Assembly (NCBI GenBank): GCA_039818205.1
Contig: JBCBUK010000007.1
Span: 32,001-96,000 of the forward strand
Length of the DNA stretch: 64,000 nt
Origin: Verrucomicrobiota bacterium
GTDB lineage: Bacteria > Verrucomicrobiota > Verrucomicrobiia > Opitutales > Cerasicoccaceae
Direction: 5' to 3'
A program made the translations under genes and the position numbers. Below, piece after piece: positions 29,560 through 54,495 of the stretch. Below the pieces are notes generated by a model, which was given only the letters and a program-made list of their open reading frames with translations, was not told the origin of the DNA and ran no database searches. Within the stretch, counting starts at the first letter, position 1. Each line of letters opens with the position of its first letter.

Positions 29560-30099
29560 ATGGGCAATGATCCAATTACCGAATCCGTTCGCGACCAGCT
29601 TAAAACCGCGGTCGAAACCCACTCGCTCCCTCTTTCGCGCTACGCCTACTCCCTTTGCGGCTGCATCCACCGGTCCCGCGATGCCGTCCAGGATACCTTC
29701 TTGCGGCTCGCCCGGCGGCCAGAACCCGTACAACCGGATGAGCGTCTGGCTCCCTGGCTATTCAAAGTCTGTCGTTCTCGGGTCATCGACCATTTCCGCA
29801 AGGAGGGCAAAATGAGCGAACTCTCCGAAATCGCCGAAATGACCTTACCGGCGGAAGACTCACTCCAACCGAACGACGCCACCGAAACGACGGATAGCTG
29901 CGCTGCGGTTTGGCAGTTCATTGCCAAGCTCCCAGTCAATCAACGCGAAGTCATCCGCCTCAAATTCCAAAACCAAATGAGCTACCAGGAAATAGCCGAC
30001 GTTACCGAGCTATCGGTTAGCAACGTGGGCTACCTCCTGCATACGGCAATGGCCACGCTGCGCCAGCAACTAAAAACCGAAACCGACCTGTTAGCTTAA
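29560..30099 (+). CDS. ECF sigma-70 factor
   Basis: DAVQDTFLRL and WLFKVCRSRVIDHFRK (region 2); LPVNQREVIRLKF..MSYQEIA (region 4). Confidence 0.92.
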   Translation: MGNDPITESVRDQLKTAVETHSLPLSRYAYSLCGCIHRSRDAVQDTFLRLARRPEPVQPDERLAPWLFKVCRSRVIDHFRKEGKMSELSEIAEMTLPAEDSLQPNDATETTDSCAAVWQFIAKLPVNQREVIRLKFQNQMSYQEIADVTELSVSNVGYLLHTAMATLRQQLKTETDLLA

Positions 30100-30111
30100 A
30101 ATTTTATAGTC

Positions 30112-32457
30112 ATGAATTTCGACAAAAACGATCATCGTATTACCGCCTATGCTCTCGGGGAACCCCTCGATCAAGAAGCGCAGGCTTTCATCGACCAGCA
30201 CAAAGATCTGGAAGAATTTCACCAAGCAGTGGCGGACATTCGCGCTACCGCCAAAGCGATCGAACGAACGTTCAGCTTGGAAGCGACTCGGGGCGAAGCC
30301 GTAAGCGAGGCTTCTGTCCTGGAACAACTGAACCAGCAACCAAGTAGGAATGGCCATGGGGAAACCACCGCTTCCAAGCTGTCTCGGTTCGTCGTTTTCG
30401 GTAGCGCGATCGCCGCTGCTTTAGCCCTGATGCTTCTCGTGCAATCGACCATCGATCCAAGCAGTCAACCATTCGGTAGCTCCTCCTCAGTTGAATCCGA
30501 TAACTCTGAGTTGATCGTTTACGAGGAGATTCGGGTCACCATTCCAAGGGAGTTAATTGAAGGAACACCTCAACCAATCAAGGTACCCAACCTTGAGCCA
30601 GCTCCGACCGAGCCACCAAAAATCGTAGTCGCTCTAAAACTGCTGGAAGAACCTGAATCAATCGATCTGGAGTTTCCAGAAGGCGCAGATATATACCTTG
30701 GTTTCAAATCTGAAGATAAGCCGGCCATCGAAGCCGAAGCTCCCGCGATGCCCTATGCGGCTCCAGCGACCAAACCAATGACTGTCATATCGGCGAATGA
30801 ACTCGCCGCATCTGGCGCGCACCTCGAAGAAATCAGAAGACAGAGCGCAGCTTCGGTCGACTTCATGACTTCGAACGATTTCAGTAAATTCTCTGCTGAT
30901 GGTCTCGCAGAACCTTCAGCAGAACCCAAAAGAGAATTAGGAGTTCAAAACGGTTGGAGTTCCACTAGCGAATCAAAGGCCAAGGACGCGGGGTGGAACC
31001 GTGAAGGCTACGACAGCATTGAAGAGAATGAGTTCATTGCACCAAAGGCGCAGCCGATTTCGACGTTCTCGGTAGACGTCGACACCGCGAGCTATGCAAA
31101 CACTCGGCGCTTCATTTCTCAGGGCAGTCTCCCACCGGCTGACGCCGTGCGGATCGAAGAGCTAATCAACTACTTCGACTACGCTTACCCAAATCCCGAT
31201 TGGAATGTCAATGCGCCCAAAGTTGGTCATCCATTTTCGGTAACCACCGAAGTCAGCTCGGCTCCTTGGAACCCCAAACACACCTTGGTGCGCATTGGTT
31301 TGCAAGGCTTTGAAGTCCCTTGGGATGAACGTCCGGCAAACAACCTCGTGTTCCTCGTCGATGTATCCGGTTCGATGGACCAATCCAACAAGTTACCCTT
31401 GGTCAAGCAAGCGTTGACCGAATTGATCCAACGCCTGGATCGTCGAGACCGCGTGGCGATCGTCGTCTATGCGGGTAGCAGTGGCCTTGCCCTTCCGTCC
31501 ACCACCGCCGACAACTACGAGACCATCGAGCATGCGCTAAACAACCTGCAGGCGGGTGGCTCAACCAATGGAGCTCAGGGAATCGAGCTCGCCTACGCCA
31601 CGGCCCAGAAGCACTTCATTGATGACGGCAACAACCGAGTGATTCTCTGCACAGACGGCGACTTCAACGTTGGCGTCAGTGATCGCGGTAGGCTTGTGAG
31701 CCTCATCGAAGAAAAGGCCAAAAGCGGGGTCTTCCTTTCAATCTGCGGATTTGGCCAAGGCAACTATCGCGACGGGATGATGGAAAGCCTGTCGAACAAG
31801 GGTAATGGCAACTACGCCTATATCGATACAGCCAACGAAGCCCGTAAGGTCTTTGGGGAAGACTTAACGAGCACCTTGCTCACGATCGCCAATGACGTGA
31901 AGATCCAAGTCGAGTTTAATCCTGCCAACGTTGGCGCATACCGACTCATCGGTTACGAGAATCGCAAACTTGCCGCGCAGGATTTCAACGATGACAAAAA
32001 GGACGCGGGCGAGATCGGATCCGGCCACTCAGTCACTGCCCTTTACGAAATCATCCCCGTTGGTATCGAATCGGATTTTTCCACGAGCACGGTTGACAAA
32101 CTCAAGTATGGCGAAAACTCGTTGAGCGCACCCGCAACATCCGACTCGGAATTCGCCAATGAGCTGATGACCGTAAAACTTCGCTACAAGCTGCCGGATG
32201 AAGATACCTCTACCTTACTATCCACAGTGATAAACAAACTGGACGGATCGACCGCAACCTCAGCGGATCTTCAATTCGCGTCTGCCGTTGCGGAATTCGG
32301 CATGCTCCTGCGCGATTCCCAGTTCAAGGGCAACTCAGACTGGGATTCGTTAATTCAGCGCGCTCGTCAATCAATTGGAAAGGATCCATCTGGAATCCGT
32401 TTGGAGTTCATCGACCTCGCTCGGCGTGCGCAAGGAATTGCGGAGCAGAACCAATAG
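30112..32457 (+). CDS. YfbK-like vWA/DUF3520 protein with anti-sigma-like N-terminus and TM segment
   Basis: ITAYALGE N-terminus, TM segment, STFSVDVDTASY, VRIEELINYF, MIDAS motif DVSGSM, TDGDFNVG, YRLIGYENR and DAGEIG. Confidence 0.88.
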   Translation: MNFDKNDHRITAYALGEPLDQEAQAFIDQHKDLEEFHQAVADIRATAKAIERTFSLEATRGEAVSEASVLEQLNQQPSRNGHGETTASKLSRFVVFGSAIAAALALMLLVQSTIDPSSQPFGSSSSVESDNSELIVYEEIRVTIPRELIEGTPQPIKVPNLEPAPTEPPKIVVALKLLEEPESIDLEFPEGADIYLGFKSEDKPAIEAEAPAMPYAAPATKPMTVISANELAASGAHLEEIRRQSAASVDFMTSNDFSKFSADGLAEPSAEPKRELGVQNGWSSTSESKAKDAGWNREGYDSIEENEFIAPKAQPISTFSVDVDTASYANTRRFISQGSLPPADAVRIEELINYFDYAYPNPDWNVNAPKVGHPFSVTTEVSSAPWNPKHTLVRIGLQGFEVPWDERPANNLVFLVDVSGSMDQSNKLPLVKQALTELIQRLDRRDRVAIVVYAGSSGLALPSTTADNYETIEHALNNLQAGGSTNGAQGIELAYATAQKHFIDDGNNRVILCTDGDFNVGVSDRGRLVSLIEEKAKSGVFLSICGFGQGNYRDGMMESLSNKGNGNYAYIDTANEARKVFGEDLTSTLLTIANDVKIQVEFNPANVGAYRLIGYENRKLAAQDFNDDKKDAGEIGSGHSVTALYEIIPVGIESDFSTSTVDKLKYGENSLSAPATSDSEFANELMTVKLRYKLPDEDTSTLLSTVINKLDGSTATSADLQFASAVAEFGMLLRDSQFKGNSDWDSLIQRARQSIGKDPSGIRLEFIDLARRAQGIAEQNQ

Positions 32458-34448: not shown

Positions 34449-35234
34449 CTAAACCTGAGCTTTTGTCACAAAAACAACCGATTCTCCGGCTGTAAGCAGT
34501 TCCCCTTCGACATCAAATACATCGCGAAAGAGATCGTTGTTCAGCGTATCATGGATTGGGCCGGAAGCGAAGGTCTTCCCTTCGCTGAGCACTAAACACT
34601 CATCCGCATAAGCCAGAGCCAAATTAAAATCGTGCAGGATGCAGGCCACACCAACTCCGCGCGATGCCATTCGCTTGGCTTCGCGTAAACAGGCGTGTTG
34701 ATGCGCGACATCGAGGTTGTTAGTGGGTTCGTCCAGGAGCAGGTATCGTTGCTCTAACGAGCCCGCCACTGGCCAGATCTGGGCCAGGCAACGCGCCAGG
34801 TGGACTCGTTGTTGTTCACCACCAGACAATGTCATATAATGCCGATCAGCCAATTCATCAACGTCAGCATCCTTCATCGCTTCGTCCACAATTTCTGATT
34901 GCTCACGCGGCTCATAGGAACCGATGTGCGGCAAGCGCCCCATCTCCACGACTTCGCGCACGGTAAAATTGAAACCCAGGTTCGAGCTCTGCGCGAGCAC
35001 AGCGCGTCGGCTGGCCAAGTTCCGTGCCGAGTACTCAGTTAGCGGTTGCCCATCCAACACCACACTTCCGTGCTGTGGCTCCAATCCTCCACCTAACAGG
35101 CGAAACAAAGTCGTCTTCCCGGCACCATTTGGCCCAAGAATCGCCAGCATACGGCCTGGGGATACACTTACCGAGACATCTTCAAGGATCGACTTCGGGC
35201 CGTAAGCAAAACTCAATTTATTCGCGACAAGCAT
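34449..35234 (-). CDS. hmuV: Heme ABC transporter ATP-binding protein
   Basis: GPNGAGKT, LSGGEQQRVHLARCLAQIW and LLLDEPT motifs; operon context. Confidence 0.9.
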   Translation of the reverse strand: MLVANKLSFAYGPKSILEDVSVSVSPGRMLAILGPNGAGKTTLFRLLGGGLEPQHGSVVLDGQPLTEYSARNLASRRAVLAQSSNLGFNFTVREVVEMGRLPHIGSYEPREQSEIVDEAMKDADVDELADRHYMTLSGGEQQRVHLARCLAQIWPVAGSLEQRYLLLDEPTNNLDVAHQHACLREAKRMASRGVGVACILHDFNLALAYADECLVLSEGKTFASGPIHDTLNNDLFRDVFDVEGELLTAGESVVFVTKAQV

Positions 35235-35238
35235 ATCA

Positions 35239-36297
35239 CTAAACAGTCATTTGACGCCGCCCACCCAACAGCAACAACAAGAAAAACGGACCACCAAGTA
35301 AGGCGGTTAAAATTCCGATCTGCAACTCAGCCGGAGCCGCCACCGTCCGGGCAAAGGTATCAGCAATCAACAGCAGTAATCCCCCGCTGAGCGCACTCAC
35401 TGGCAACAGCAAGCGATGGTCCGGCCCTAAGCTAAGACGAACGATATGCGGAGCCACTAAACCAATGAATCCAATGATGCCTGAGAAGGCAACGGTCACG
35501 CCCACCATCAATGCACTCACGACGATGGCCAATTGTTTCACCCGGTTGACGTTTACCCCCAGGTGGTACGCCTCAAGCTCGCCAAGTAGGAATGCGTTCA
35601 ACGCTTGCCCCAGGCGCAAGGCAACGACCAGGCAGGGAGCCAGGATCACCAGAAGAATGCCGACGCTCGTCCAGGTTGCACCCGCCAAGCTTCCGAGAGT
35701 CCAGAACGTCACCGTCCGCAACTGATCGTCATTGGCCACCAAGGTGACGCATAGCCCAATCAACGCACCGGCGATCGCATTGATCGCAATCCCCGTAAGG
35801 AGCATGGACGCAACGTGAATTCGTCCACCAACTCGTGACAGCTGATATACCAGAAAAGTGACCCCAACGCCGCCGGCCATCGCCATCAAAGGGAGCAGCG
35901 CTAAGTCAAAAAAGTAACTGCTTATGCCGAACGCCGGGAACAACACAATTGCGACAACGGCACCCATGGCCGAGCCACTCGAAACACCGATCAAGCCCGG
36001 GTCTGCCAAGGGATTCCGGAACAAGCCTTGCAAAACTGCGCCTGAAACTGCCAGGCCAGCCCCAATCAAAACCGCCAGAATGATCCGTGGTAAACGGATC
36101 TGCCAAATCACGGAACTGGCCACATTGAGCTCCGGATTCTCGCGACCCAGTAACTTCTCAAACAAGACTGAAAGAACTTCGCCCCAACTGAGCTTCATTG
36201 CCCCGGTGCCCAACGAAATCCCCGCGGCCAGAAAAAGAACCGCGATCAGAATAACGTAAACCCACAGACGGCGAGCACCCTTAATACGCAAAGGCAT
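35239..36297 (-). CDS. hmuU: Heme ABC transporter permease (FecCD family)
   Basis: IRLPR, QGLFRNPLADPGLIGVSSG and GIIGFIGLVAPH motifs. Confidence 0.9.
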   Translation of the reverse strand: MPLRIKGARRLWVYVILIAVLFLAAGISLGTGAMKLSWGEVLSVLFEKLLGRENPELNVASSVIWQIRLPRIILAVLIGAGLAVSGAVLQGLFRNPLADPGLIGVSSGSAMGAVVAIVLFPAFGISSYFFDLALLPLMAMAGGVGVTFLVYQLSRVGGRIHVASMLLTGIAINAIAGALIGLCVTLVANDDQLRTVTFWTLGSLAGATWTSVGILLVILAPCLVVALRLGQALNAFLLGELEAYHLGVNVNRVKQLAIVVSALMVGVTVAFSGIIGFIGLVAPHIVRLSLGPDHRLLLPVSALSGGLLLLIADTFARTVAAPAELQIGILTALLGGPFFLLLLLGGRRQMTV

Positions 36298-36332
36298 CGG
36301 CTAAACAAAGAAGCGTGTTGAGATGAGAACGA

Positions 36333-37208
36333 CTATTGGCTAACCGAAGCAAAGAGCTGGTTCCAACGCGCAATAGACTCGGCCAGCCGCGGGCCGAAAG
36401 CAAGATCATCCATGGGCACGCCATGAACTGCGCCCGCTTGCACTGCTGCAAGCGAGCCCAGCATCGGCATTGAACGGAGAGCGTCAACCGTCGCCTGAGA
36501 TGCTCCGTGTTGATCCGAAATGCCAACCAGAATGATGTCTGGGTTGATCTCAATCAAACTTTCGAGTGAAAGGGTTTTGAATCCGTCAAACCCCGCCGCT
36601 CCATTCTTTCCGCCGGCCAACGAGATCAATGAATCCGAACGCGTTGCTTCGCCACCCGCGGTTCCGGGCGCTCCCAATGAGGGAGGTCGCAGAAAGAAAA
36701 CGACTACCGGCTTGCGGTCCCATGACGAACTCTCCGTACGCGCATCGCCTTCCGCTTCGCGAACCCGTCGGATGATGCCCTCTGCCTGGTCATCTCGATC
36801 CAGCTTCTTCGCAATCGCCTCCACCGATTGTTCCAATGCCTCAATGCTATTGGGCTCCGGACACCAAACCGTGGGAATCGCCAACTGCTTGAGGATCTTT
36901 TTTGCCGCCGGCGGGCCAAGCGATTCGGTTGTCACGACCAAGTCGGGGTCCATCGACAAGATTCCCTCTGGGGAAATATTTCTAATGTATCCAACCTGCG
37001 GCAAATCCTGCGTCGACTCCGGGTAAGTACTGCTAAGATCCACGGCAACCACCTGATCTCCAGCGCCCAACGCGTAGACGATCTCCGTTGCCGCTCCACC
37101 GACCGTCACAATGCGGTCGTAACGAGCACCCGAGGCAAGCTGGGAACACACCAATGGCATAAGAATCGAGACGATCGCGGTGAATTTTACATATTGATAT
37201 TGAGACAT
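36333..37208 (-). CDS. hmuT: Heme ABC transporter substrate-binding protein
   Basis: RIVTVGGAATEIVYALGA, VDLSSTYP and VGYIRNISPEGILS (heme-ligand Tyr). Start uncertain (ATG 37208 or TTG 37226). Confidence 0.88.
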   Translation of the reverse strand: MSQYQYVKFTAIVSILMPLVCSQLASGARYDRIVTVGGAATEIVYALGAGDQVVAVDLSSTYPESTQDLPQVGYIRNISPEGILSMDPDLVVTTESLGPPAAKKILKQLAIPTVWCPEPNSIEALEQSVEAIAKKLDRDDQAEGIIRRVREAEGDARTESSSWDRKPVVVFFLRPPSLGAPGTAGGEATRSDSLISLAGGKNGAAGFDGFKTLSLESLIEINPDIILVGISDQHGASQATVDALRSMPMLGSLAAVQAGAVHGVPMDDLAFGPRLAESIARWNQLFASVSQ

Positions 37209-37276
37209 AATTTCAAAAAGTTGCAATTTTCAGTTGACCCTCGCAAGCTTTTATTGTTCTTGAGTTCCATTCTCAC
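37200..37276. promoter_or_regulatory. Two Fur-like inverted repeats in the hmuT/hmuS divergent region
   Basis: TTGAGACATAATTTCAA (37200-37216) and TTGAGTTCCATTCTCAC (37260-37276); consensus TTGAGA-N5-TCTCAA. Confidence 0.5.
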
Positions 37277-37297
37277 TTACAAAACTAGCAAAACAGC

Positions 37298-38341
37298 ATG
37301 TCGAAACTACTTTCCTCTCCAATCAATGAGCGCTACCGCGATTTGATGAATTCCACTAAAGGCCTACGGCAACGCGACGCTGCTGAGCGTCTCAATGCCA
37401 CCGAAGCCGAACTTGTTGCCGCAAACTGCGGATGCGAATCCACCCAGCTCGATGTCAGCGACTGGATCTCATTTATTAAGGAGCTCAAGCTCCTCGGACG
37501 TGTGATGGTGCTAACTCGTAACGATCACTGCGTCCACGAACGAAAGGGTTGCTACGAATCCATTATTGGGCACGGGAAGCGTATTGGCCTCGTTACTGGC
37601 AAAGACATCGACCTGCGCCTCTTTTTTGAGGCATGGCAGTATGCGTTCGCGGTTACAGCGCCGGGTCGCGGTGGCAAAGCCCTGCAGTCCATCCAGTTTT
37701 TCGATCGCTACGGCAACGCCGTTCACAAGGCATACCCGCAGGAGAGCGATCGCCAAGGAGAATACGAAAGCCTCGTCGAGCGCTTCCGCGCAGCGGAGCA
37801 ATCGGATTCGATTCTCATTGATGCCAAGCCAGCGAAAACATCCCACCCGTCCCTTGAGGAGTCACAACAAGCAACATTCCTTGACGAGTGGGAGAAGCTA
37901 CAGGATACGCATGATTTCTTCCCACTTCTTGGCCGTTACGATGTTGGTCGGCTGCAAGCCATGGAGATTGCCGAGGGACGGTTTACCCGTCGCCTCGACA
38001 CTCAGGCGGCCCGGACCGTGCTTGAGCAAGCGCGTGATCAGGAAGTCTCGATCATGGTCTTCGTGGGCAATGATTCCGCAATTCAGATTCATACCGGACC
38101 GGTGCAAAAATTAGCCATCTCCGGAGAATGGTTCAACGTATTAGACCCCGATTTCAATCTACACCTCAACGAAACGGGCATCGCCAGTGCCTGGCACGTC
38201 ACCAAGCCCACCAAGGACGGCGACGTAAACTCACTGGAGCTCTACGACGCCGATGGTGAGATCATCGCGCAGTTCTTTGGAGCACGAAAGCCAGGAATTC
38301 CGGAGCGATCGGATTGGCGGCAAATCTGCGACGGTCTCTAG
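37298..38341 (+). CDS. hmuS: Hemin-degrading/trafficking factor HemS/HmuS/ChuS
   Basis: RDAA..L...EAELVAA, LTRN..CVHE.KG, IDLRLF, SIQFFD..G.AVHK, DTHDFF, IMVFVGN, QIHTG and FNLHL motifs. Confidence 0.93.
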   Translation: MSKLLSSPINERYRDLMNSTKGLRQRDAAERLNATEAELVAANCGCESTQLDVSDWISFIKELKLLGRVMVLTRNDHCVHERKGCYESIIGHGKRIGLVTGKDIDLRLFFEAWQYAFAVTAPGRGGKALQSIQFFDRYGNAVHKAYPQESDRQGEYESLVERFRAAEQSDSILIDAKPAKTSHPSLEESQQATFLDEWEKLQDTHDFFPLLGRYDVGRLQAMEIAEGRFTRRLDTQAARTVLEQARDQEVSIMVFVGNDSAIQIHTGPVQKLAISGEWFNVLDPDFNLHLNETGIASAWHVTKPTKDGDVNSLELYDADGEIIAQFFGARKPGIPERSDWRQICDGL

Positions 38342-40556: not shown

Positions 40557-41387
40557 CTAGCTCGGGATGGGCTTGCGCTTTGTAAAGAGCAGGCCGATCA
40601 CCAGCGCAAATAAGGCAATGGGAGCCAGGCTCAACCAACTGAAAGTATTGATCCCCTCCAAGCGGATATCTTCGATACTGCGGCTGATCGCGCCACCGCG
40701 CCCAAACACGCAGAGGCGATAAGGACGAGAAAGGTTTAAGGTCGGGCCATCACCAAAAGCAACCAATTGATCATCAAGCCAATACTCCCACTGGTCGGGC
40801 TTGACTATAACCCGGATACGATGAGTCCCTTCGGTAGGCCCTCCCCGGTAGAGCCGCAATTGCTCCTCTCCGTTCCGTACCAACAATCCCGCATCCATGC
40901 GATTCTGCACGATTCGGAAAACTAAGCAGTCGGGAGTTGGCTCGTTGGCGAATTCAACCTGATTCGTAAATCTCAACGACAATCCATTTTTGAGGTCTCT
41001 CGGACTAACTTGATCAGCTGCAAGCAATCCGATCTCGAACTGATTTGCGTTAAAGTCGTCAACCCGATCCGTAGAAACCGATGCCTCAAGAAGAAACCCA
41101 TCCTCACTAACAAAGGCACTATTGGTGAACCAGTATGCGCGCGGCCCCGGAAGTTGGCTTTCTTGAAAGTATTCAAGTTTTCCATCCAGTTCGCGCCAGG
41201 AGCCCTTCTGGTTGGACCACTGATGAGCGCGAATCTCGTGCACCAGACCAAAGCCCATTTCGCTATTATCCTCCAAGTTCGATTCGCCAATGAAATCGTT
41301 CTCGTACAGCACTCGTCCCATCAACATCTGGGGAGAGGTCGCAAGAAGAGTCAAAAAAAACGCGCAAATGAACTTCAGGTTCATCAT
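40557..41387 (-). CDS. Exported protein with a C-terminal TM anchor, third gene of the ECF-kinase operon
   Basis: ATG 41387 overlaps the kinase stop (ATGA). Signal peptide, and a C-terminal hydrophobic helix followed by KRK. Confidence 0.8.
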   Translation of the reverse strand: MMNLKFICAFFLTLLATSPQMLMGRVLYENDFIGESNLEDNSEMGFGLVHEIRAHQWSNQKGSWRELDGKLEYFQESQLPGPRAYWFTNSAFVSEDGFLLEASVSTDRVDDFNANQFEIGLLAADQVSPRDLKNGLSLRFTNQVEFANEPTPDCLVFRIVQNRMDAGLLVRNGEEQLRLYRGGPTEGTHRIRVIVKPDQWEYWLDDQLVAFGDGPTLNLSRPYRLCVFGRGGAISRSIEDIRLEGINTFSWLSLAPIALFALVIGLLFTKRKPIPS

Positions 41388-43405
41388 TGATATTTGACCT
41401 CTACCCAATTTGGGATTTTCTGCCAATCCTCAGCTGACAATTGGCCATCTCGAACAATCAAGGTCTCGAGATGGTGCATGGATTCGATTCCGCTAAGGTT
41501 GCACTTCGGTGTCTCTGAAATATCGAGAACCGAAAAATCAAGATTGGCCAGTTTCTTCAGAGAGAACCAAGAATCGGGAACAATTACCTTCACCGAACGT
41601 AGCGGCAATAAACTGAGAAATGGTGACTCCTTGCCTCCGGGAGCGCGGGCGTGCATCACGCTCAATCCCGTTCCGCCGATCACTAGATGTTGGCTGACGG
41701 GATCGTAATTGAAGATACCAGATAACCATTCCTGATTATAGTGTTCAAGCAGTGCCTGAACAACTGGCCCATAGCCTGATTTGTCCTCGCGATGGGCCGC
41801 GTCGAAATAGACCATTTTGGAGAACAAGCCCAGGAAGTTGCTATCCATCAATTTGGCATGTTGAGCACAGGCGATTACTTCATCCAGGCTCGGGCGTACA
41901 GTCTGATTAAATCGGTAATCTTTAAAGCGACTGGCAAGTTCAATAAACTGCGGGTTTACCTCCAAGCCCTGTTGCAGCGCAGTTTCATTGGCGATCTTAA
42001 AGTTCATGCGAATCATTTCGAAATAGAATCGCTGCCGCCAGTACTCCTCCGCATCTGGAAATAGTGTGACATGCTGATCATAGGCTTCCAACAGCGTTCC
42101 CATGACCCAACCGGGGTCGGTGTAAAACATACGATCTCGCACCCTCGCGTAAGTTGCCAAGGTGCCATCAGATAGCTGAGTCAGTGAATCAATCTCGTCC
42201 TGCGCCGTTTCCTTGTAGGTGTCCAGTAGCTGATACTGCGTCTCCGCGCGGCGCTTCTGCTCTTCGACTGCACGAGATAAGGTGTGGCTCGTGAAGGCGA
42301 CAATGGTCGCTGCCATAAACAAGACGCAACACAGCAGTACGTTGCGCTGGACCAAGAGAACCAATCGCTCCCAGAGAAACGGGCTGTCCGCATAGGTTGG
42401 AATGTGGCCCTTGTATCGTTGGATATCCTCCTGCAGACTCTTTACTGATGAATAGCGCTTCTCGGGGTCCGGTGACATTGCTCGCTTGACGATGGCCTTC
42501 AAACCTTTGGTCAAACCAGAGTCTGAATGTTTGATCCGACCGACCTCGATCACCACTCCCTTACGGGTTTTCTCAATCATTTTCTCGATGGACAATCCCT
42601 CCATCGGTGCCGATCGCGTCAAGATACTATAGAGGATGGCTCCAAGGGCGTAGACATCGGTTCGGGCGTCCTTCTCCCCACCTGAGACCACTTGTTCTGG
42701 GGCCATATAGCCTGGTGTTCCTTTAATCTCCCCCAGCAGCGACTTACCGGTGTATCCTTCGAGGTCAATCTCGACTTCGTCAGCCAACTCATGAAAGAGC
42801 TTCGACTCATTCACAACTTTCGCCAAACCCCAATCGCAAACGATCACCTCACCGAAATCATTTACATAGATATTGGCGGGTTTGAGATCGAGGTGAATGA
42901 CGCCTTCACCATGGGCATACGCCACCGCATCACAGATCTTCAGAAAGATATCAAGGTAGTCATTTAACTTAAGTTCATCTCCCTTTGGATTCTCTTTAAA
43001 TACGCGGTCCTCGACCAATTCCTCTAGCGTCGAGCCTCGCATGAGGTCCATGGAAAAAAATGGCCGTCCACCTGGTTCCACGCCAATGTCGTGGATATTA
43101 ATAATATTGGGGTGACTCAATGAAGCGGTCAGCTGCGCCTCCAACAGAAACGGCTCATAGAACACTTTATCCAATCGCTCGTGCAGCCGCCCGATTGCAA
43201 CCTGGCGTTTGGTCTTCGTATCAAAGGCGCGGAAAATCTGTTTCGACCCACCCTCAGCAATAAAAGCCGGGTCTAGATACCGGTCACCCTCGTTAAGCAA
43301 ATCGGCATACGCCGGCGAGAGGTCTTCGGCATTCGGGTCTCCATCGGATGCCAAATCATAGAGAAAACCGAGATCTCGATCCAGGTTATACTCATCCTCA
43401 GTCAT
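41384..43405 (-). CDS. Membrane-spanning Hanks-type Ser/Thr protein kinase with atypical lysine placement
   Basis: HPNI, HLDLKPAN, DWGLAK, GTPGYMAPEQ and DVYALGAILY motifs. One TM segment and an LRR-like C-terminus. Confidence 0.92.
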   Translation of the reverse strand: MTEDEYNLDRDLGFLYDLASDGDPNAEDLSPAYADLLNEGDRYLDPAFIAEGGSKQIFRAFDTKTKRQVAIGRLHERLDKVFYEPFLLEAQLTASLSHPNIINIHDIGVEPGGRPFFSMDLMRGSTLEELVEDRVFKENPKGDELKLNDYLDIFLKICDAVAYAHGEGVIHLDLKPANIYVNDFGEVIVCDWGLAKVVNESKLFHELADEVEIDLEGYTGKSLLGEIKGTPGYMAPEQVVSGGEKDARTDVYALGAILYSILTRSAPMEGLSIEKMIEKTRKGVVIEVGRIKHSDSGLTKGLKAIVKRAMSPDPEKRYSSVKSLQEDIQRYKGHIPTYADSPFLWERLVLLVQRNVLLCCVLFMAATIVAFTSHTLSRAVEEQKRRAETQYQLLDTYKETAQDEIDSLTQLSDGTLATYARVRDRMFYTDPGWVMGTLLEAYDQHVTLFPDAEEYWRQRFYFEMIRMNFKIANETALQQGLEVNPQFIELASRFKDYRFNQTVRPSLDEVIACAQHAKLMDSNFLGLFSKMVYFDAAHREDKSGYGPVVQALLEHYNQEWLSGIFNYDPVSQHLVIGGTGLSVMHARAPGGKESPFLSLLPLRSVKVIVPDSWFSLKKLANLDFSVLDISETPKCNLSGIESMHHLETLIVRDGQLSAEDWQKIPNWVEVKYQ

Positions 43406-43986
43406 TCCAAATTTGTTTTCAGATTCTGAACCTCCTTCAACAAGCGGCTCTTCACACGACGCTTCAACGTATAGACAGTATTGACCGTAACTCCAAGCTC
43501 TTCAGCAATGGCCTCAACCTTCATCCCCTTAATGCTCATTTTGAATACTTGAATCGCATTGCCGCGATAAACCTTCTCGACGTTCGTCATCGCAAGGTTC
43601 GAAAGGTAAATCCCCCACTCCTTATTGACCATTTCTTCAAACTCATCGGTCGCCAAATCGGCTGCCGTTGCTTCAAGGTGATCTTTCTCCGTAGTTGTGA
43701 CTAGTTTATCTCGGCGAATTCGCTTTGCCAGATAGCGACCAGCCTGGTGCCGCACAATCGCACTCAACCAGGTTCGAAACTTCGCCTTCTCTTTTTTATA
43801 GGTCGGCAGGCTTTTCCAAAGCTCGATCAGAATATCCTGTGATAAGTCATCGATATCATCGGGGCGCACGCCAATGCGGTTTAGCAGGTAAAAAATAAAC
43901 CGCCGGTAGTAAAACACGAACTCATCCCAGGCTTCATTGTTTCCGGGCTGGCATGCGCGTTCCAAGAGTGTGTGCCTGGTTTCCAT
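43402..43986 (-). CDS. ECF sigma factor, kinase-associated type
   Basis: TRHTLLER..AWDEF..YY, KFRTWL and IAEELGVTVNTVYTLKRRV motifs. Its stop overlaps the kinase start. Confidence 0.92.
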   Translation of the reverse strand: METRHTLLERACQPGNNEAWDEFVFYYRRFIFYLLNRIGVRPDDIDDLSQDILIELWKSLPTYKKEKAKFRTWLSAIVRHQAGRYLAKRIRRDKLVTTTEKDHLEATAADLATDEFEEMVNKEWGIYLSNLAMTNVEKVYRGNAIQVFKMSIKGMKVEAIAEELGVTVNTVYTLKRRVKSRLLKEVQNLKTNLE

Positions 43987-44368
43987 CTAAGGTCTTGAGT
44001 GGATGCGTTCACGTTCCAGTTCCGAAACACGGTCTGCAACGGTTAGAAATCTAAGGTTAGGAACGTTTTTGACGATCGGATTGTCACTGTAAATATCGGA
44101 ATAGAAGAGCCCATCGTTAAGAATTCTTACTGAGCAACGTATCAATTGTCGAGTCGGTTTGAGGGAACAACCGAGCCCAGAATTGCAGGAAACACTTCAA
44201 TATTCGATAAAGTATCTGATCGAGTGTACAAAACGTCAACAGGTCAAACAATGTATTGATAGCCATGTTTCGCTTAGCGCGGTAACGCAAGGCTAACCGT
44301 TTCATTTCAATACACTTCCGGCGACCAAAATTTCGCTGTAACAAACCTCAATATACATTCAATCACCC

Positions 44369-45013
44369 ATGACAGAATATCTTCGAAAAGCCAAGCCGGC
44401 AAGCGCCCTCTTAGCCGGGATGCTGCTCTGCCCGCTGGCAAATGCTGAACTAATCACCTTTGACTGGGCCGCTGGCTTCCAGAGCAACGTACCGACCACA
44501 ACGTTCTTTGATGTGGATGGTTCTGGCATTGACGTTGAGGTGTCCTTTTCAACGTTCACCCAGGGCAATGGAGCTAACAACCCAGCCAGCAACGGTGGCG
44601 TCGATGGAACCGCTGGCGGATTCCTGGATACCACCGCCGCCACCGGAAGCATCAATTTCGACTCTGATGTTCTGATCTCCCAGTTCTACTGGCGCCCAGC
44701 AAGTGCAGCTGATGCCGCGCCAGTAACCCTTGTTGGTTCGCTCTTGGGAATCGAGCAATGGAGCATCAGCACCATTGTCCCTATTACCGGCGATGCCGAA
44801 CTGATCAATTCAGATCTCCAACTCACAACCGGAAGCTTCGCGAGCGCAATTGACTCAATCAGCTTCAGTCAATCGGTTCTGACGAATTCCAACCGTTTGG
44901 ATGATATCACTTTCACCGTCGCAACGATACCGGAACCAAGCACGTTTGCTCTGATCGGAAGCCTGCTTGCCTTCGGTGCGGTCGTTGTCCGTCGAAGAAA
45001 GAACAATAGCTAA
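44369..45013 (+). CDS. PEP-CTERM sorting domain protein
   Basis: Signal peptide, IPEPSTFAL, TM segment and RRRK. Confidence 0.92.
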   Translation: MTEYLRKAKPASALLAGMLLCPLANAELITFDWAAGFQSNVPTTTFFDVDGSGIDVEVSFSTFTQGNGANNPASNGGVDGTAGGFLDTTAATGSINFDSDVLISQFYWRPASAADAAPVTLVGSLLGIEQWSISTIVPITGDAELINSDLQLTTGSFASAIDSISFSQSVLTNSNRLDDITFTVATIPEPSTFALIGSLLAFGAVVVRRRKNNS

Positions 45014-45041: not shown

Positions 45042-45080
45042 GTCAGGCCAAGGTGAGGACCTTGGCCTGACATTTTCTCT
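45042..45080 (+). terminator. Strong hairpin/terminator after the PEP-CTERM gene
   Basis: GTCAGGCCAAGGT-GAGG-ACCTTGGCCTGAC is a perfect 13-bp stem, followed by ATTTTCTCT. Confidence 0.75.
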
Positions 45081-45167: not shown

Positions 45168-46661
45168 ATGCTTCGATTAATCCCCAACCTCCTTATCGCA
45201 TTAGGAATTACCGTTAGCCTGCCAGGCAACGCCCAAGCACAATCCAAGGACCAACGACCAAACGTCCTGATTATCATGGCCGACGACCTCGGCTACGCCG
45301 ATGTCGGATTCAATGGATCGACCGCTGTGGAAACACCGGTTCTGGACAGTCTCGCCCAGCAAGGTGTGATCTGTGAGAACGGCTACGTCACGCATCCCTA
45401 TTGTGGCCCTTCCCGGGCAGGCTTCATTACCGGCCGTTATCAGGCCCGGTTTGGGATGGAGATCAACGTCACCTACTCCCCCTACGATCAATACTCGGGA
45501 TTACCACTGGACCAGAAAACATTTGGCGACCGCCTCCAGGCGCTTGGTTACCACACCGGCGTCATTGGCAAATGGCACCTCGGTGCGTCACCACCATTTC
45601 ACCCCAACAATCGGGGATTTGATTATTTTTATGGATTCCTGTCCGGAGGCCATTGCTACTTCCCAAGCGGGGTTACTACCAACCATCCCTTGACCCTACC
45701 CAACGGTCAGCCCCACTACAGTGCCAATGAAGGCGGATTCCTTCCCCTCATTCGCAACAACCAAGCCGCCGAGTTCAACGAGTATCTCACATATGCCCTC
45801 AGCCGAGATGCCGCAAAATTCGTCAAAGAATCCGAGAAACCATTTTGTTTATTCCTCGCCTACAACGCGCCACACGGCCCACTAGAAGCGCCGCGGGATT
45901 TGATGGCGAAGTATTCCCACGTCAAGCCATGGCAGCGACAAGCCTACCTTGCGATGATCGACGCGATGGATCAAGGCATTGGCATGGTCGTCGACGCACT
46001 CAAGGAATCCGACAAATTCGACAATACGCTTATTTTCTTTCTTTCAGATAATGGCGGCGTGCAATCCAAGCCAGGCTACGAGAACGAAACCTGGGCGGAC
46101 AATGGACCACTCCGTAATGGCAAAGGCAGCATGCGCGAAGGCGGAAGTCATGTTCCATTTATAGCCCACTGGCCCGATGGAATTCCTAGCGGTGAGCGCT
46201 ACTCCTATCCAGTGTCTTCACTCGACATTACGGCAACCGCCGTCGCACTCGCTGGCAGCAAGGTACAAGATCCTGAGCTGGATGGCGTCAATTTGATCCC
46301 CTACTTCAATGGGAAGAAAACCGGCCCGCCTCACAACGCGATTTTCTGGCGAATCCGGGATGGATCTGCCTGGTGCGTTCGCACGCCGGATGCAAAGTAT
46401 TTGTTTGAGAACCGAGGCGCACCGGGCCCAGAACTCTACGACATGGTCAACGACCCTTTTGAGTCCACCAATCTAATTGAAAAGCGCCCGGAACAACGCC
46501 AACAACTGGCTGCGCTCTGGAATGATTGGAATGCCGACAATCACGCAAATGTTTTACTTCAATCTGGAGAGTATCAAAAGCGACGCCTTCGGATGTATAA
46601 AGAATTGTTTGAAGATCTCGAAGCCAAGGCTGACAAGCGAAAGCCAACCGTGATCGAGTAG
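45168..46661 (+). CDS. Secreted S1 sulfatase
   Basis: PNVLIIMADDLG, CGPSRAGFITGRY, GKWHLG and SDNGG motifs. Confidence 0.95.
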   Translation: MLRLIPNLLIALGITVSLPGNAQAQSKDQRPNVLIIMADDLGYADVGFNGSTAVETPVLDSLAQQGVICENGYVTHPYCGPSRAGFITGRYQARFGMEINVTYSPYDQYSGLPLDQKTFGDRLQALGYHTGVIGKWHLGASPPFHPNNRGFDYFYGFLSGGHCYFPSGVTTNHPLTLPNGQPHYSANEGGFLPLIRNNQAAEFNEYLTYALSRDAAKFVKESEKPFCLFLAYNAPHGPLEAPRDLMAKYSHVKPWQRQAYLAMIDAMDQGIGMVVDALKESDKFDNTLIFFLSDNGGVQSKPGYENETWADNGPLRNGKGSMREGGSHVPFIAHWPDGIPSGERYSYPVSSLDITATAVALAGSKVQDPELDGVNLIPYFNGKKTGPPHNAIFWRIRDGSAWCVRTPDAKYLFENRGAPGPELYDMVNDPFESTNLIEKRPEQRQQLAALWNDWNADNHANVLLQSGEYQKRRLRMYKELFEDLEAKADKRKPTVIE

Positions 46662-46746: not shown

Positions 46747-49700
46747 ATGTTACATTGTATCCGGTTTTTCTCTTGGTTAGCTGTCTGCTGGGTGACGCAA
46801 GCGGCGTCCGCACAGAACATCGTCGTTAGCTCAACCAAACCAACCGGGGACTACGCTATTGATGAGCTAGGACTCGAGGGAGACCCAAAGTCGACGCCCA
46901 TCCGACGCATCGATGATGTTGGCAATGCCCGTGTCTTGGGGCACACGATCAAGGAATCCACGGGGTTTGATCTTGAAAGTTTTATCCTGGTTAGTGCTTC
47001 GAATATCAGTTTCGGAACGACTACTGATATTCGACTGGCGATTCTCGAGGATACCAATAACAGCGATCGTGGCGACACGGTTGTTTACAATGAACTCTTC
47101 GATCTGAATGGCCTGTCTTTTTCTGATGGTGACTACGTCGAATTTCTCCTCGGTAGTGACTTAGCGATCAAAGCCAACACGACTTATGAGATTCAATTCG
47201 CCTACTCTGATCCCGGCTCGACGCATACTAATTTTCTTTTCCGCCGTTCAGAAAATGGCCTCAACAACTATCCTACAGGGACACTTTTGGACGAAAACTC
47301 TTTCCACTTCAACAATCGTGGATTTCCAGTAACCGACGGTTCTCTCGCGTTAAGCGGGCTGGATCGCGATCTATTTTTCGGCCTGACTAAGCCCTCAGCG
47401 GACCCGGACCCCGACCCAGATCCAACTCCGATTCCAACCGACCGCCCCAATATCATCCTTATCTTTACCGATGACCTCGGCTGGGGAGACATCTCACTTC
47501 ACGGCAATACATCCATTAGCACACCTCAAATTGATCGACTCGCTACGGAGGGCGTTCGTTTTACTAACGGATACGTAACTCATGCCTACTGCGGCCCTTC
47601 GCGTGCGGGCATAATGGCCGGTCGCTATCAGCAACGCTTCGGTTTTGAGGCTAACCCGGCCAAGACCGATGACGACATGCTGCTGGGCATCGCCCCCTCG
47701 GAAATCCTTATGCCTCAAGCGCTGCAAAGCGCTGGATATCGGACCGCCTGCATCGGCAAATGGCACCTGGGAGCAACCCCGATTCACCACCCACTCAATC
47801 GCGGCTTCGATGAGTTCTACGGCTTTCTCGATGGTGACGCCAACTACTGGGATGTCGAACAAGGTGGCCGAATCCATAACATATCGCGCGAATACGACTG
47901 GGTTAACGATGTGGGCTACCTCACCGATAATTTCACAGATGCGACGCTCGACTTCATCGATCGGAATCGCCACGACCGCTTCTTCGTCTACCTGTCGCTA
48001 AACGCAGTTCACGGCCCCTTCCAAGCCACGTCTTACTACCAAAGCCTCGTAAACGATCCGAACTTGGATAATTTGCGAAAAGTTCAACTGGCTATGGTGC
48101 TGTCCGTCGAAGAGACCGTAAAGCGCATCCGCCAGAAACTGGCAGACCTCAACCTAACCGAAGATACGCTGATCGTCTTTACGAACGACAACGGGGGCCA
48201 CACCGGAGACAATGGCATGAATTTGCCCCTACGCGGGCACAAGGGCACCCATTTCGAAGGCGGGCTTCGTGTTCCGTTTTTCATGATCTGGCCTGGAAAG
48301 ATACCAGCTGGGACGGTCGTCGACGATCCAGTCATCACTCTTGATTTATATGCCACGTTTGCCAACGCCGCTGGTGTTCAGCCAGAAGACCGTAACCCCA
48401 ACTTAGATGGTGTCGATCTCCTGCCCTATATTCTCGGCCACGAAACCGGCCCGCCCCACGATGCACTCTACTGGCGCGACGGCACTGGTTGGCAATTTAC
48501 GGTCCGACAAGGCAACTATAAATTAAAGGGCGGCGCCGATTCAAATCGCTTTCCACCTTCGATATTTGATGTGGTCAACGATCCCTACGAAACGACTAAC
48601 CTCTACAACTCTCGCCCGGATCTTGCCGCAAGCCTTCGAAGCACCTACAATCAGTGGAACGCGACCTTACCCAGACAAGACTTCGGAAACAATCAAACGT
48701 TCCCCAACCCGATCAGCGGTGGAATCAACTCGCCGGCAACTGCCACGGCCAATGCATCTGGCAACCCGGCCACGATATCGTTCACGACAAACTATGTTGA
48801 TTCCAGTGGCGGCAGTCTCAACTATATTTGGCAAGTCGAGGGAGAGGGAAAAAGCTTCATCCACACACCAACCGGAGCAAGTTCAGTCATCGAATTCAAC
48901 AACTCGGGAAGCTATGAAGTCCGAGTTACGGTGAACAATGGTCGTTTCCTTAAAGAGGATCTAGTAACCGTGAATGTATCCGGTGCGCCATCGGTTCCAG
49001 TTTCCGATATTCCGACCCTCGGACAGACAGTCTGGATCGAATCGATTGCCTCCGGGAAACGGCTGCTCGTCAACAACGACGGTGGCGAGCAGGTTCTTGC
49101 CGACGCCGATCCAATTTATGGCTCCGATCTCAAGCCAGGGATTGGCAGTCAATGGGGCGTTCTCCGAGCGCCAAATGGATATCTATCACTCGTCTCCATT
49201 AAAACCGGGAAACTCATGAAAGTCGGGCCAGCACCCGACTTCGTAATCGCCGCAACCGAAGAACCCAGCGAAACACCGACTGATAGCGCGCAGTTTCAAT
49301 TCCAATCCGAACCAAATAGCCGCTTCTCAATCGTGCCCAAAGTTGCGCCAAGCAGTCGCGTTTCGGTCGACACGGGAGTTGCGCGCAACCCGGCTAGCGC
49401 AACCGGTACCGCCGGCAACTCGAACACGCAATTTACTTTTGGCGCCCTCAAACATGATGTCCCCTACACCATCGAAGTCTCCTCACTCGAAGGACAATCG
49501 TCGGCAACCGCCGTTCAAGAAGGCTGGTTCACTGTCTTTCTGCAACCCTCACTAACACCCGAGATCAATGTCGTCTGGGTGGAAGAACGCTTCCCCGCCG
49601 ATTGGACGGTAGAAGTTCGCAGCATGAGCCACGGCGGAACTTTTGATGCCCAAAACAAAGTCATCAGCTGGGGGCCATTTTTCGGAACATTCCCCAACCT

Positions 49701-50193
49701 CTCGTATGAGCTACGGCTAGACTCCAGCAATGTCGGTGGCTTCAACTTCAGTGGAGACCTTGCCGTTAATTCAATGGCATATCCATCGACTGGAACACGT
49801 CACTTGGCCCCAAAGCAAACGGAGTCACTCACCGATTGGCTATCACGGATCGCGCCAGGGAGCCTTGCCTCCGACCTCCTGCCTAATTCAACCATCACCT
49901 ACGAGATGGCCTATGCCCTGGGCATCGAAGACCCATCAGAGTTTGCTGCCAAAGCGCCTGACATATTCAACCTTCAATCGGACAACGCAATGCCTGAGCT
50001 CGTATTCAAATTTACCCGCTCAAAAACAGATGCTTCCAACTTTGCTCTCGAGCACTCCTCGAATCTTTCGACCTGGGATCCTGTGCCGTTTAGCGAAATC
50101 GACCTGGTGGCTGAGGACGCAATCTCTTGGTGCTACCAGACCACGATCGACCCTGCCCAAGGTCCAAGCTTCTATCGAATCTTTGTCGACTAA
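46747..50193 (+). CDS. Multimodular secreted sulfatase
   Basis: N-terminal unknown domain, DPDPDPDP linker, PNIILIFTDDLG, CGPSRAGIMAGRY and GKWHLG. PKD-like and further C-terminal modules follow. Confidence 0.92.
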   Translation: MLHCIRFFSWLAVCWVTQAASAQNIVVSSTKPTGDYAIDELGLEGDPKSTPIRRIDDVGNARVLGHTIKESTGFDLESFILVSASNISFGTTTDIRLAILEDTNNSDRGDTVVYNELFDLNGLSFSDGDYVEFLLGSDLAIKANTTYEIQFAYSDPGSTHTNFLFRRSENGLNNYPTGTLLDENSFHFNNRGFPVTDGSLALSGLDRDLFFGLTKPSADPDPDPDPTPIPTDRPNIILIFTDDLGWGDISLHGNTSISTPQIDRLATEGVRFTNGYVTHAYCGPSRAGIMAGRYQQRFGFEANPAKTDDDMLLGIAPSEILMPQALQSAGYRTACIGKWHLGATPIHHPLNRGFDEFYGFLDGDANYWDVEQGGRIHNISREYDWVNDVGYLTDNFTDATLDFIDRNRHDRFFVYLSLNAVHGPFQATSYYQSLVNDPNLDNLRKVQLAMVLSVEETVKRIRQKLADLNLTEDTLIVFTNDNGGHTGDNGMNLPLRGHKGTHFEGGLRVPFFMIWPGKIPAGTVVDDPVITLDLYATFANAAGVQPEDRNPNLDGVDLLPYILGHETGPPHDALYWRDGTGWQFTVRQGNYKLKGGADSNRFPPSIFDVVNDPYETTNLYNSRPDLAASLRSTYNQWNATLPRQDFGNNQTFPNPISGGINSPATATANASGNPATISFTTNYVDSSGGSLNYIWQVEGEGKSFIHTPTGASSVIEFNNSGSYEVRVTVNNGRFLKEDLVTVNVSGAPSVPVSDIPTLGQTVWIESIASGKRLLVNNDGGEQVLADADPIYGSDLKPGIGSQWGVLRAPNGYLSLVSIKTGKLMKVGPAPDFVIAATEEPSETPTDSAQFQFQSEPNSRFSIVPKVAPSSRVSVDTGVARNPASATGTAGNSNTQFTFGALKHDVPYTIEVSSLEGQSSATAVQEGWFTVFLQPSLTPEINVVWVEERFPADWTVEVRSMSHGGTFDAQNKVISWGPFFGTFPNLSYELRLDSSNVGGFNFSGDLAVNSMAYPSTGTRHLAPKQTESLTDWLSRIAPGSLASDLLPNSTITYEMAYALGIEDPSEFAAKAPDIFNLQSDNAMPELVFKFTRSKTDASNFALEHSSNLSTWDPVPFSEIDLVAEDAISWCYQTTIDPAQGPSFYRIFVD

Positions 50194-54361: not shown

Positions 54362-54495
54362 ATCCATACGGATGTTACTGAGCCACACCTTGGCAGTTTT
54401 GGTGCGGTGTGGCTTGGTATCCATCTTTTGCTGAGCAACCCACACATCCATCACGCACTGACTACAATCTCAACACACTACTATTCATATCCGCC

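Follow-up and report, generated by a model that had tools for sequence, protein, structure and literature searches.

A Verrucomicrobiota receptor kinase with a WNK-like lysine swap, encoded together with an ECF sigma factor

We analysed a receptor Ser/Thr kinase gene and an overlapping gene for a sigma factor of the extracytoplasmic function (ECF) type in a 64,000-nt stretch of DNA from a Verrucomicrobiota bacterium (hereafter the window; all coordinates refer to the full stretch). The kinase lacks the catalytic lysine of strand beta-3 and has a lysine where the third glycine of the Gly loop would be, as do the eukaryotic WNK kinases. Throughout a large clade of bacterial kinases this swap is a fixed trait, so that the enzyme is likely to be active. 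Taking the two genes together, we favor, with a probability of roughly 0.6, the reading that an active receptor kinase using the relocated lysine (Lys55) controls the partner sigma factor, which would in turn switch on neighboring sulfatase genes.

The initial annotation, made from the sequence alone, had described a kinase gene overlapping an ECF sigma factor gene. Both open reading frames (ORFs), the kinase (673 aa; 41384..43405, minus strand) and the sigma factor (194 aa; 43402..43986, minus strand), were found as described, joined by a 4-bp ATGA overlap between the stop codon of the sigma factor gene and the ATG start codon of the kinase gene. The residue swap was confirmed as well: codon AAA (43241..43243) encodes Lys55 in I-A-E-G-G-S-K-Q-I-F, and codon GGG (43190..43192) encodes Gly72 in Q-V-A-I-G-R-L (features of the kinase gene are all on the minus strand). 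In the HMMER alignment to PknB of Mycobacterium tuberculosis (E value of 3.2e-31), Lys55 is aligned with the last position of the G-F-G-G-M-S loop of PknB, which is the third position of GxGxxG, and Gly72 with the Lys of V-A-V-K, the position of the canonical beta-3 catalytic lysine. Canonical relatives have G, S, or A in the Lys55 column and K in the Gly72 column. According to DSSP applied to the AlphaFold2 model (mean predicted local distance difference test, pLDDT, of 82.1), Lys55 is the first residue of beta-2 (residues 55–62) and Gly72 is located within beta-3 (residues 67–74).

The other catalytic residues of the enzyme are intact, in agreement with the initial annotation. These comprise Glu89 of helix alphaC (43139..43141); Asp173, Lys175, and Asn178 of the catalytic loop H-L-D-L-K-P-A-N (His171 to Asn178; 42872..42895), which is of the non-RD type, a Leu occupying the position of the Arg of HRD; Asp191 of C-D-W-G (Cys190 to Gly193; 42827..42838), the equivalent of the metal-binding DFG; and Glu237 of A-P-E. 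The Pfam Pkinase profile (PF00069) matched residues 49–325 with 124.5 bits (cut-off of 31.7). The protein is therefore a Hanks-type kinase by profile and by its bilobal fold, but not by the beta-3 catalytic lysine of VAIK, which is replaced by Gly72 here and by Ala, Thr, or Gly in the clade. What the kinase has is the combination that identifies WNK kinases, in which a Lys replaces the third glycine of the Gly loop and beta-3 has a residue other than Lys.

WNK kinases are described as the only functional family of eukaryotic protein kinases devoid of K72 (PMC1821047), and a comparable lysine shift is reported for CAK-chloro, a subfamily of small-molecule kinases (PMC1821047). WNK1 is described as having a Cys in beta-3 and the lysine moved to beta-2 (PMC12599244, PMC1821047). 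As far as these accounts go, the kinase of the window resembles WNK by its small beta-3 residue, by the Lys that opens beta-2 in place of the third glycine of the Gly loop, and by retention of the alphaC Glu and of the rest of the active site. A lysine that reaches in from beta-2 would require such a small residue in beta-3. By analogy with WNK, Lys55 likely performs the function of the missing beta-3 lysine.

To assess how widespread the swap is, relatives were collected by a word-index search (120 listed) and by an exhaustive search of representative proteins (150 listed), providing 257 proteins and 290 kinase-domain matches. The exhaustive search returned 29,386 representatives at E ≤ 1e-30, ordinary kinases included. 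Among the matches listed for the kinase and for the sigma factor, the closest named proteins are those of Rubellicoccus peritrichatus. Among the 290 domains listed, 231 combined a Lys in the Gly loop with a small beta-3 residue, 49 were canonical, 1 was degenerate, and 9 were gapped in either trait column. Both lysines were found together in none of the 290 domains, the swapped and canonical states being perfectly complementary. As judged from the alignment, this pattern is far beyond chance. The Gly-loop Lys was invariant in the swapped domains (231/231), and the beta-3 residue was Ala in 228, Thr in 2, and Gly only in the copy of the window. The swapped domains retained the alphaC Glu (230/231), HLD and DWG (226/231), and the K and N residues of the catalytic loop (231/231). 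This conservation was observed at about 30–35% identity to the kinase of the window for the swapped proteins listed, the single exception being one orthologue at 54%. Additional columns shifted along with the swap, including the Arg of HRD, which is replaced by Leu (Leu172) in 99% of the clade versus 10% of the canonical relatives, the Cys preceding D-W-G, and about a dozen more. The hosts of the swapped clade belong to the Verrucomicrobiota, Kiritimatiellota, Lentisphaerota, and Planctomycetota.

Genomic loci were examined for 80 of at least 605 matching stretches in species-representative genomes. The top 26 loci all encoded swapped kinases (26/26) and the other 54 all encoded canonical kinases (54/54). 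Trees were inferred by a quick tree search from 81 kinase domains after removal of both trait columns. The 27 swapped rows were located on one side of a branch with SH-like approximate likelihood ratio test (SH-aLRT) values of 99 under LG+G4 and 92 under a mixture model. On these trees the swap arose once within bacterial Hanks-type (D-W-G) kinases, since one state change is sufficient. The initial annotation had proposed to look for covariation of the two lysines among homologues. Their mutual exclusivity was borne out, but as the outcome of one event rather than of repeated co-change. Because a single event was followed by long retention, we give the covariation no statistical weight of its own, and the argument for activity rests on retention of all the catalytic residues. 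The beta-3 lysine was lost, yet an invariant lysine is present at the position of the WNK catalytic lysine and the remaining motifs are conserved. Lys55 may compensate for the loss, and the kinase is predicted to be catalytically active.

Two additional observations concern the history and size of the clade. In the mixture-model tree, a set of 28 rows (SH-aLRT of 95) comprised all 27 swapped rows and one canonical row. A canonical kinase of a metagenome-assembled genome (MAG) of the Lentisphaeraceae (locus L027; loop G-G-M-G, beta-3 V-A-I-K) already has H-L-D and D-W-G. If this kinase is the canonical row of the 28-row set, loss of the HRD Arg would predate the move of the lysine. A swapped-lysine receptor-kinase profile matched (E ≤ 1e-60) once in the genome of the window, once in an Akkermansiaceae MAG, 7 times in a Pontiellaceae genome, and 64 times in Lentisphaera marina (genome G032, to which locus L008 belongs). 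The latter number reveals a very large paralogue expansion.

The similarity to WNK is convergent, as the initial annotation had suggested, since the closest relatives of the enzyme are bacterial Hanks-type kinases. The best structural match by VIA-align was PknB (1mru_B; Z of 30.2, root-mean-square deviation of 1.9 Å over 258 residues, 31% identity). Further top structural matches were PknA and PknS, with PknS of Xanthomonas (PDB 9eed) in third place by Foldseek. PknB, PknA, and PknS also headed the sequence matches in the PDB (E value of 4.7e-28 for PknS, 9eed). The enzyme is not a WNK relative, the clade branching within bacterial D-W-G kinases. The structural matches listed contained no WNK entry, which by itself carries no verdict. 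Unlike WNK, the enzyme is of the non-RD type (H-L-D) and is a receptor that crosses the membrane once and has its ectodomain at the C-terminus, and WNK accessory domains were not found in it by the Pfam search.

The receptor architecture was deduced from a Kyte-Doolittle scan and from the AlphaFold2 model. The kinase domain, delimited by the Pfam match, the model, and the VIA-align superposition on PknB, extends from about residue 43 to residue 335 (42401..43279). Residues 347–377, approximately (42275..42367), form the sole stretch above 1.6 in the scan and a long helix in the model, and are the predicted transmembrane segment. The predicted ectodomain (41387..42274) consists of helical repeats (residues 401–556, approximately) followed by a leucine-rich repeat (LRR)-like beta/alpha region (residues 561–672, approximately), both modeled mostly at pLDDT values of 81–96. 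Since there is one hydrophobic segment followed by helical and LRR-like regions, the N-terminal catalytic domain is predicted to be cytoplasmic and the C-terminal part to be the ectodomain. A Pfam scan of the ectodomain gave no match, and the Atlas LRR matches (feature score of 0.86, TM-scores of 0.40–0.46) are leads only.

Coupling of the kinase to an ECF sigma factor, the second element of the initial annotation, is real and recurrent within the clade. In the set of 80 loci, an ECF homologue was present within 4 kb of the kinase gene at 16 of the 26 swapped loci and at none of the 54 canonical loci. In 10 loci, the sigma factor gene was upstream on the same strand, with stop-to-start spacings of –4 nt (six loci), –1 nt (one), 0 nt (two), and +1 nt (one). 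Other gene orders were kinase followed by sigma factor in three Pontiella loci and a convergent orientation in three loci. No anti-sigma family was detected in the 62 neighboring ORFs that were scanned (E ≤ 1e-6) or, by Pfam, in the operon of the window. Thus, as in ECF43-type systems, the ECF gene adjoins a gene for a transmembrane Hanks-type kinase and no anti-sigma gene was found in the neighbors scanned. Near their N-terminus, the ECF-linked kinases have a P-x-Y-x-x-L ... R-Y segment in common. Carbohydrate-active genes were present within 4 kb in 10 of the 16 ECF-linked loci. They encode sulfatases (4 loci), glycoside hydrolases (GH) of family GH95 (3 loci), 3-keto-disaccharide hydrolases (2 loci), GHL15, GH43 with a GH141-like protein, and a melibiase with a sodium:solute symporter. 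Two genes for PP2C-type phosphatases are present elsewhere in the genome of the window.

The sigma factor matches Sigma70_r2 (2.7e-14) and Sigma70_r4_2 (1.9e-6) in Pfam, and the only NCBIfam profile above its cut-off is the generic TIGR02937 (70.9 bits; cut-off of 42.9). Since a word-index search with the sigma factor gave 8 proteins, the alignment of 22 partner sigma factors was built mainly from the loci. In the N-terminal sequence M-E-T-R-H-T-L-L, Thr3 was invariant (22/22) and position 6 was Thr or Ser in all partners (22/22), defining a T-R-x-T/S-L-L motif. The TRHT sequence, which the initial annotation had singled out as a candidate phosphorylation site, therefore holds one residue that is always Thr and another that is always Thr or Ser. 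This N-terminal motif is lacking in the four other ECF-like ORFs of the genome of the window. The acidic motif of region 2.2 is retained (D-D-I-D-D-L-S-Q-D), with Asp47 and Gln50 invariant in the 22 partners. One entry in the databases, with 99% identity to the sigma factor, is 187 rather than 194 aa long and apparently starts about 7 residues later, which would remove the conserved M-E-T-R-H-T-L (43966–43986). The start at the ATG at 43986 is supported by the identity to the orthologue of a related genome, G008, and by conservation across the family.

In the pairs EcfK/PknS and EcfP/PknT, the adjacent Hanks-type kinase has been shown to phosphorylate the ECF sigma factor directly (PMC13147305). 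The gene pair of the window resembles EcfP-PknT of Vibrio parahaemolyticus and EcfK-PknS of Xanthomonas citri in associating a transmembrane Hanks-type kinase with an ECF sigma factor without an anti-sigma gene. According to their descriptions, ECF43 sigma factors no longer have the acidic D-x-x-D in region 2.2, where they carry a phospho-acceptor Thr instead (PMC13147305, PMC8999054). In contrast to ECF43 as portrayed there, the sigma factor family of the window keeps the acidic region 2.2. The published mechanism of ECF43 activation is therefore not directly transferable. The two types of systems also differ in their host phyla and in their targets, which are glycan and sulfatase loci here and the type VI secretion system or polymyxin resistance for ECF43.

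Kinase-associated ECF groups are listed as ECF43, 59–62, 217, 267, and 283, of which ECF59, 61, 62, 217, 267, and 283 come from Planctomycetes or Proteobacteria (PMC7826278). ECF59, ECF61, ECF62, and ECF217 are reported to be 100% planctomycetal and to be associated with kinases containing 1 or 5–6 transmembrane segments or with WD40 or TPR fusions, and phospho-regulation of the planctomycetal groups was proposed from genomics only (PMC7826278). The sigma factor of the window resembles these four groups in being an ECF of the Planctomycetes-Verrucomicrobia-Chlamydiae (PVC) superphylum with a membrane kinase, usually encoded at position +1 in those groups, and no anti-sigma factor. The available portions of their descriptions do not mention a relocated lysine.

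Seven bacterial pseudokinase families, ActPs1-3, GLW, CP1, DYD, and DLHK, have been reported from actinobacteria, proteobacteria, cyanobacteria, and firmicutes (PMC12599244, bioRxiv 10.1101/2025.01.12.632604). In the portions of these sources that describe them, the families share with the kinase of the window the absence of the beta-3 Lys. They differ from it by Arg, Leu/Trp, or other substitutions and by further degraded motifs, and none is described there as having a Lys in the Gly loop. The main texts of the pseudokinase review (PMC12599244) and of the serine/threonine kinase (STK) atlas preprint do not mention Verrucomicrobia, Planctomycetes, or sigma factors, nor does the main text of the latter (10.1101/2025.01.12.632604) mention PVC or Lentisphaerota. 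Bacteria are not mentioned in a 2026 review of WNK. Our literature search found no bacterial Hanks-type family with a Gly-loop lysine, the supplements of the atlas, whose 42 families or 'Bac_Unique' set may include the clade, being outside its coverage, and no description of ECF-kinase pairs in Verrucomicrobiota, Kiritimatiellota, or Lentisphaerota. The swapped-lysine clade thus appears to be new in detail, combining three known elements, Hanks-type receptor kinases, ECF-kinase pairs, and a WNK-type relocation of the lysine.

In the mechanism that we propose, a signal would enter through the helical and LRR-like ectodomain, possibly with the participation of an all-beta membrane protein encoded by the third gene of the operon. 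The ligand might be a sulfated glycan or one of the products to which such a glycan is degraded. The kinase, with Lys55 in place of the beta-3 lysine, would act on the partner sigma factor, for which Thr3, the Thr or Ser at position 6, and a Ser/Thr-rich linker are candidate phosphosites. Since the sigma factor keeps the acidic region 2.2, its activation would differ from that of the ECF43 type and may combine binding with a release or an activation driven by phosphorylation. The binding component is plausible because it fits the tight 1:1 coupling of the genes. The sigma factor would then turn on the neighboring sulfatase and glycan genes.

Several observations weigh against this reading. First, Thr3 may simply be a helix N-cap, and conservation of the acidic D-x-x-D-x-x-Q, as read from the sequence, removes the rationale known from ECF43, in which a Thr replaces a lost charge. 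Second, a partner of the anti-sigma type, binding stoichiometrically, would account for the tight translational coupling at least as well as an enzyme-substrate pair. Third, when the 300-bp upstream regions of 17 partner sigma genes were searched for a bipartite motif in common, the best pair was present in 4 of the 17 regions, shuffled sequences reaching 3–4, and no bipartite motif was common to the upstream regions of the sigma and sulfatase genes in the window and G008. Fourth, 10 of the 26 loci of the clade have no ECF neighbor. In 4 of these 10 loci (L011, L018, L025, and L026; Victivallales/Lentisphaeria), a shorter kinase gene directly follows clpP-clpX, and the P-x-Y-x-x-L segment is not shared by the Victivallales members that have no ECF neighbor. 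Control of an ECF sigma factor is consequently a trait of a subfamily rather than of the swapped lysine, and the relocated lysine is older and more broadly distributed than the coupling to the sigma factor. The gene order of L018, tig-clpP-clpX-kinase, looks like a housekeeping context.

The alternative that best withstands the data, although we consider it unlikely, is that the kinase is silent or only binds ATP. Its cytoplasmic part would tether the sigma factor in the manner of an anti-sigma factor until a ligand sets it free, Lys55 contributing only to nucleotide binding or to stability of the fold. Formally, the beta-3 Lys of the catalytic triad is missing. The 4-bp overlaps and the spacing, –4 to +1 nt in each of the 10 same-strand loci, are typically seen for 1:1 partners of the sigma/anti-sigma type, no separate anti-sigma gene was found in the operon and neighbors scanned, an intact region 2.2 implies that the sigma factor needs no extra charge, and the conserved N-terminal extension of the kinase, which is modeled with low confidence, could dock the partner. 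However, pseudokinase families usually lose several motifs, according to the review (PMC12599244), whereas Asp173, Lys175, Asn178, Asp191, and Glu89 are kept in 226–231 of the 231 domains at about 30–35% identity, which is hard to explain without phosphotransfer. In addition, members of the clade without an ECF neighbor keep the same catalytic residues. Owing to the intact region 2.2 and to the strict translational coupling, we retain binding of the anti-sigma type as a serious rival of phosphorylation or as one component of the mechanism.

Quite unlikely is a second alternative, that of an active kinase whose substrate is something other than the sigma factor. Kinase and sigma factor would only be co-expressed, the kinase acting on other proteins or on itself and the sigma factor being controlled through its own transcription. 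The loci devoid of an ECF neighbor are consistent with this possibility, as are the status of the phosphosites of the sigma factor, which are candidates only, and the lack of a shared promoter motif in the 17 sigma upstream regions and in the window and G008. It accounts poorly for the presence of an ECF gene next to 16 of the 26 kinases of the clade versus none of the 54 outgroup kinases, for the persistence of the pairing across three gene orders (sigma factor upstream, downstream, or convergent), and for the invariance of Thr3 in the partner sigma factors. Direct phosphorylation, moreover, has been shown for other ECF-kinase pairs (PMC13147305). Finally, loss of the catalytic lysine by chance in a decaying gene has a negligible probability and was rejected: although the beta-3 Gly is unique to the copy of the window, the other members having Ala or Thr, the 673-aa ORF is intact, the homologues likewise lack VAIK and have the Gly-loop Lys with a small beta-3 residue as a fixed trait in 231 domains with conserved catalytic residues, and the 54% identical orthologue of G008 has the same architecture and operon.

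The reading of an active kinase controlling its partner sigma factor also has a bolder form, which is tentative. PVC bacteria would independently have re-invented the WNK solution in a huge family of LRR-type receptors that serve as their main sensors of sulfated glycans and activate dedicated ECF sigma factors through phosphorylation of the invariant N-terminal Thr, by a mechanism distinct from that of ECF43. Sensitivity to an anion (chloride or sulfate) may result from the remodelled active site, as in WNK.

If the kinases of the clade are active, they would constitute a second independent and very large family with a WNK-like relocation, making this active-site layout a repeatable evolutionary solution, and would supply small bacterial proteins for its study. 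In Verrucomicrobiota, Kiritimatiellota, and Lentisphaerota, the kinase-sigma pairs are located near sulfatases and fucosidase-type glycoside hydrolases, and the literature that we searched does not address the regulation of the large sulfatase repertoires of these marine glycan degraders. This makes the pairs testable candidates for the sensors that are missing, which would correspond in function to the regulators of polysaccharide utilization loci of Bacteroidota.

The genes divergent from the operon are candidate targets of the sigma factor. They are separated from it by an intergenic region of the window (43987..44368) and encode, on the plus strand, a PEP-CTERM protein (214 aa; 44369..45013; 21 bits in Pfam for a cut-off of 20.7; TIGR02595), a sulfatase (497 aa; 45168..46661; Pfam Sulfatase, 8.9e-62), and a protein with sulfatase and PKD domains (1148 aa; 46747..50193; Pfam Sulfatase, 5.8e-60; PKD, 2.7e-5). 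The sulfatase gene at 45168..46661 is the most likely target. Membership of the PEP-CTERM gene in the regulon is doubtful, this gene being missing from an orthologous locus (G008) in which the sulfatase gene is kept. A sigma-70-like site, TTGACG-17-GATACT, is present in the divergent region (44239–44211, minus strand). Since the scan for sigma-70 promoters and terminators gave 2 promoter-like sites versus 4.5 expected, such sites provide no evidence. Comparison of the regions upstream of the ECF gene in the window and G008 did not reveal a footprint (alignment score of 25 versus a shuffle maximum of 27). A hairpin with a 13-bp stem followed by ATTTTCTCT is located between the PEP-CTERM and sulfatase genes (45042–45071, plus strand). 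A similar sequence is present 30–66 nt upstream of the sulfatase gene of G008, and it was the only element to stand out in the comparison (alignment score of 31 versus a shuffle maximum of 25). In the sulfatase leader, this hairpin may act as a terminator or attenuator, or it may be a palindrome to which a protein binds.

The operon itself comprises three minus-strand ORFs chained by 4-bp ATGA overlaps, in the order ECF sigma factor, kinase, and a predicted all-beta membrane-anchored protein. The ATG of the third gene (276 aa; 40557..41387), which is supported by the gene call and by an orthologue in G008, overlaps the stop codon of the kinase gene. Its product begins with a signal-like segment, continues with a body predicted to be all-beta, and ends with a membrane anchor and K-R-K after it. 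An Atlas match to concanavalin/GH16-like proteins is a lead only, and the AlphaFold2 model, based on only 2 sequences, had a pLDDT of 49, which is insufficient for a fold search. Of 30 relatives of the genome of the window, G008 was the one that carried an orthologue of the kinase, which was not found in five genomes of the same genus (0/5). The G008 locus contains the same three overlapping genes and the divergent sulfatase gene, without a PEP-CTERM gene between them. Identities to the window are 76% for the sigma factor, 54% for the kinase, 51% for the product of the third gene, and 79% for the divergent sulfatase. No homologues of the third gene product, the PEP-CTERM protein, or two upstream secreted proteins were found among the 80 loci. 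Apart from the third gene in G008, these genes are thus outside any conserved module.

Elsewhere in the window, a giant ORF (2765 aa; 54409–62706, plus strand) was not matched by any Pfam profile at E ≤ 1e-5. Another ECF sigma factor gene (179 aa), unrelated to the first, is separated by 13 nt from a downstream gene for a 781-aa protein with von Willebrand factor A (vWA) and YfbK_C domains (29560–32457, plus strand); this pair may represent a different sigma factor/regulator system. A haem-uptake cluster encoding an ABC ATPase, a FecCD permease, a periplasmic binding protein, and HemS/ChuX (34449–38341) is located directly to the left of the two proteins flanking the operon, which are secreted or PEP-CTERM-like.

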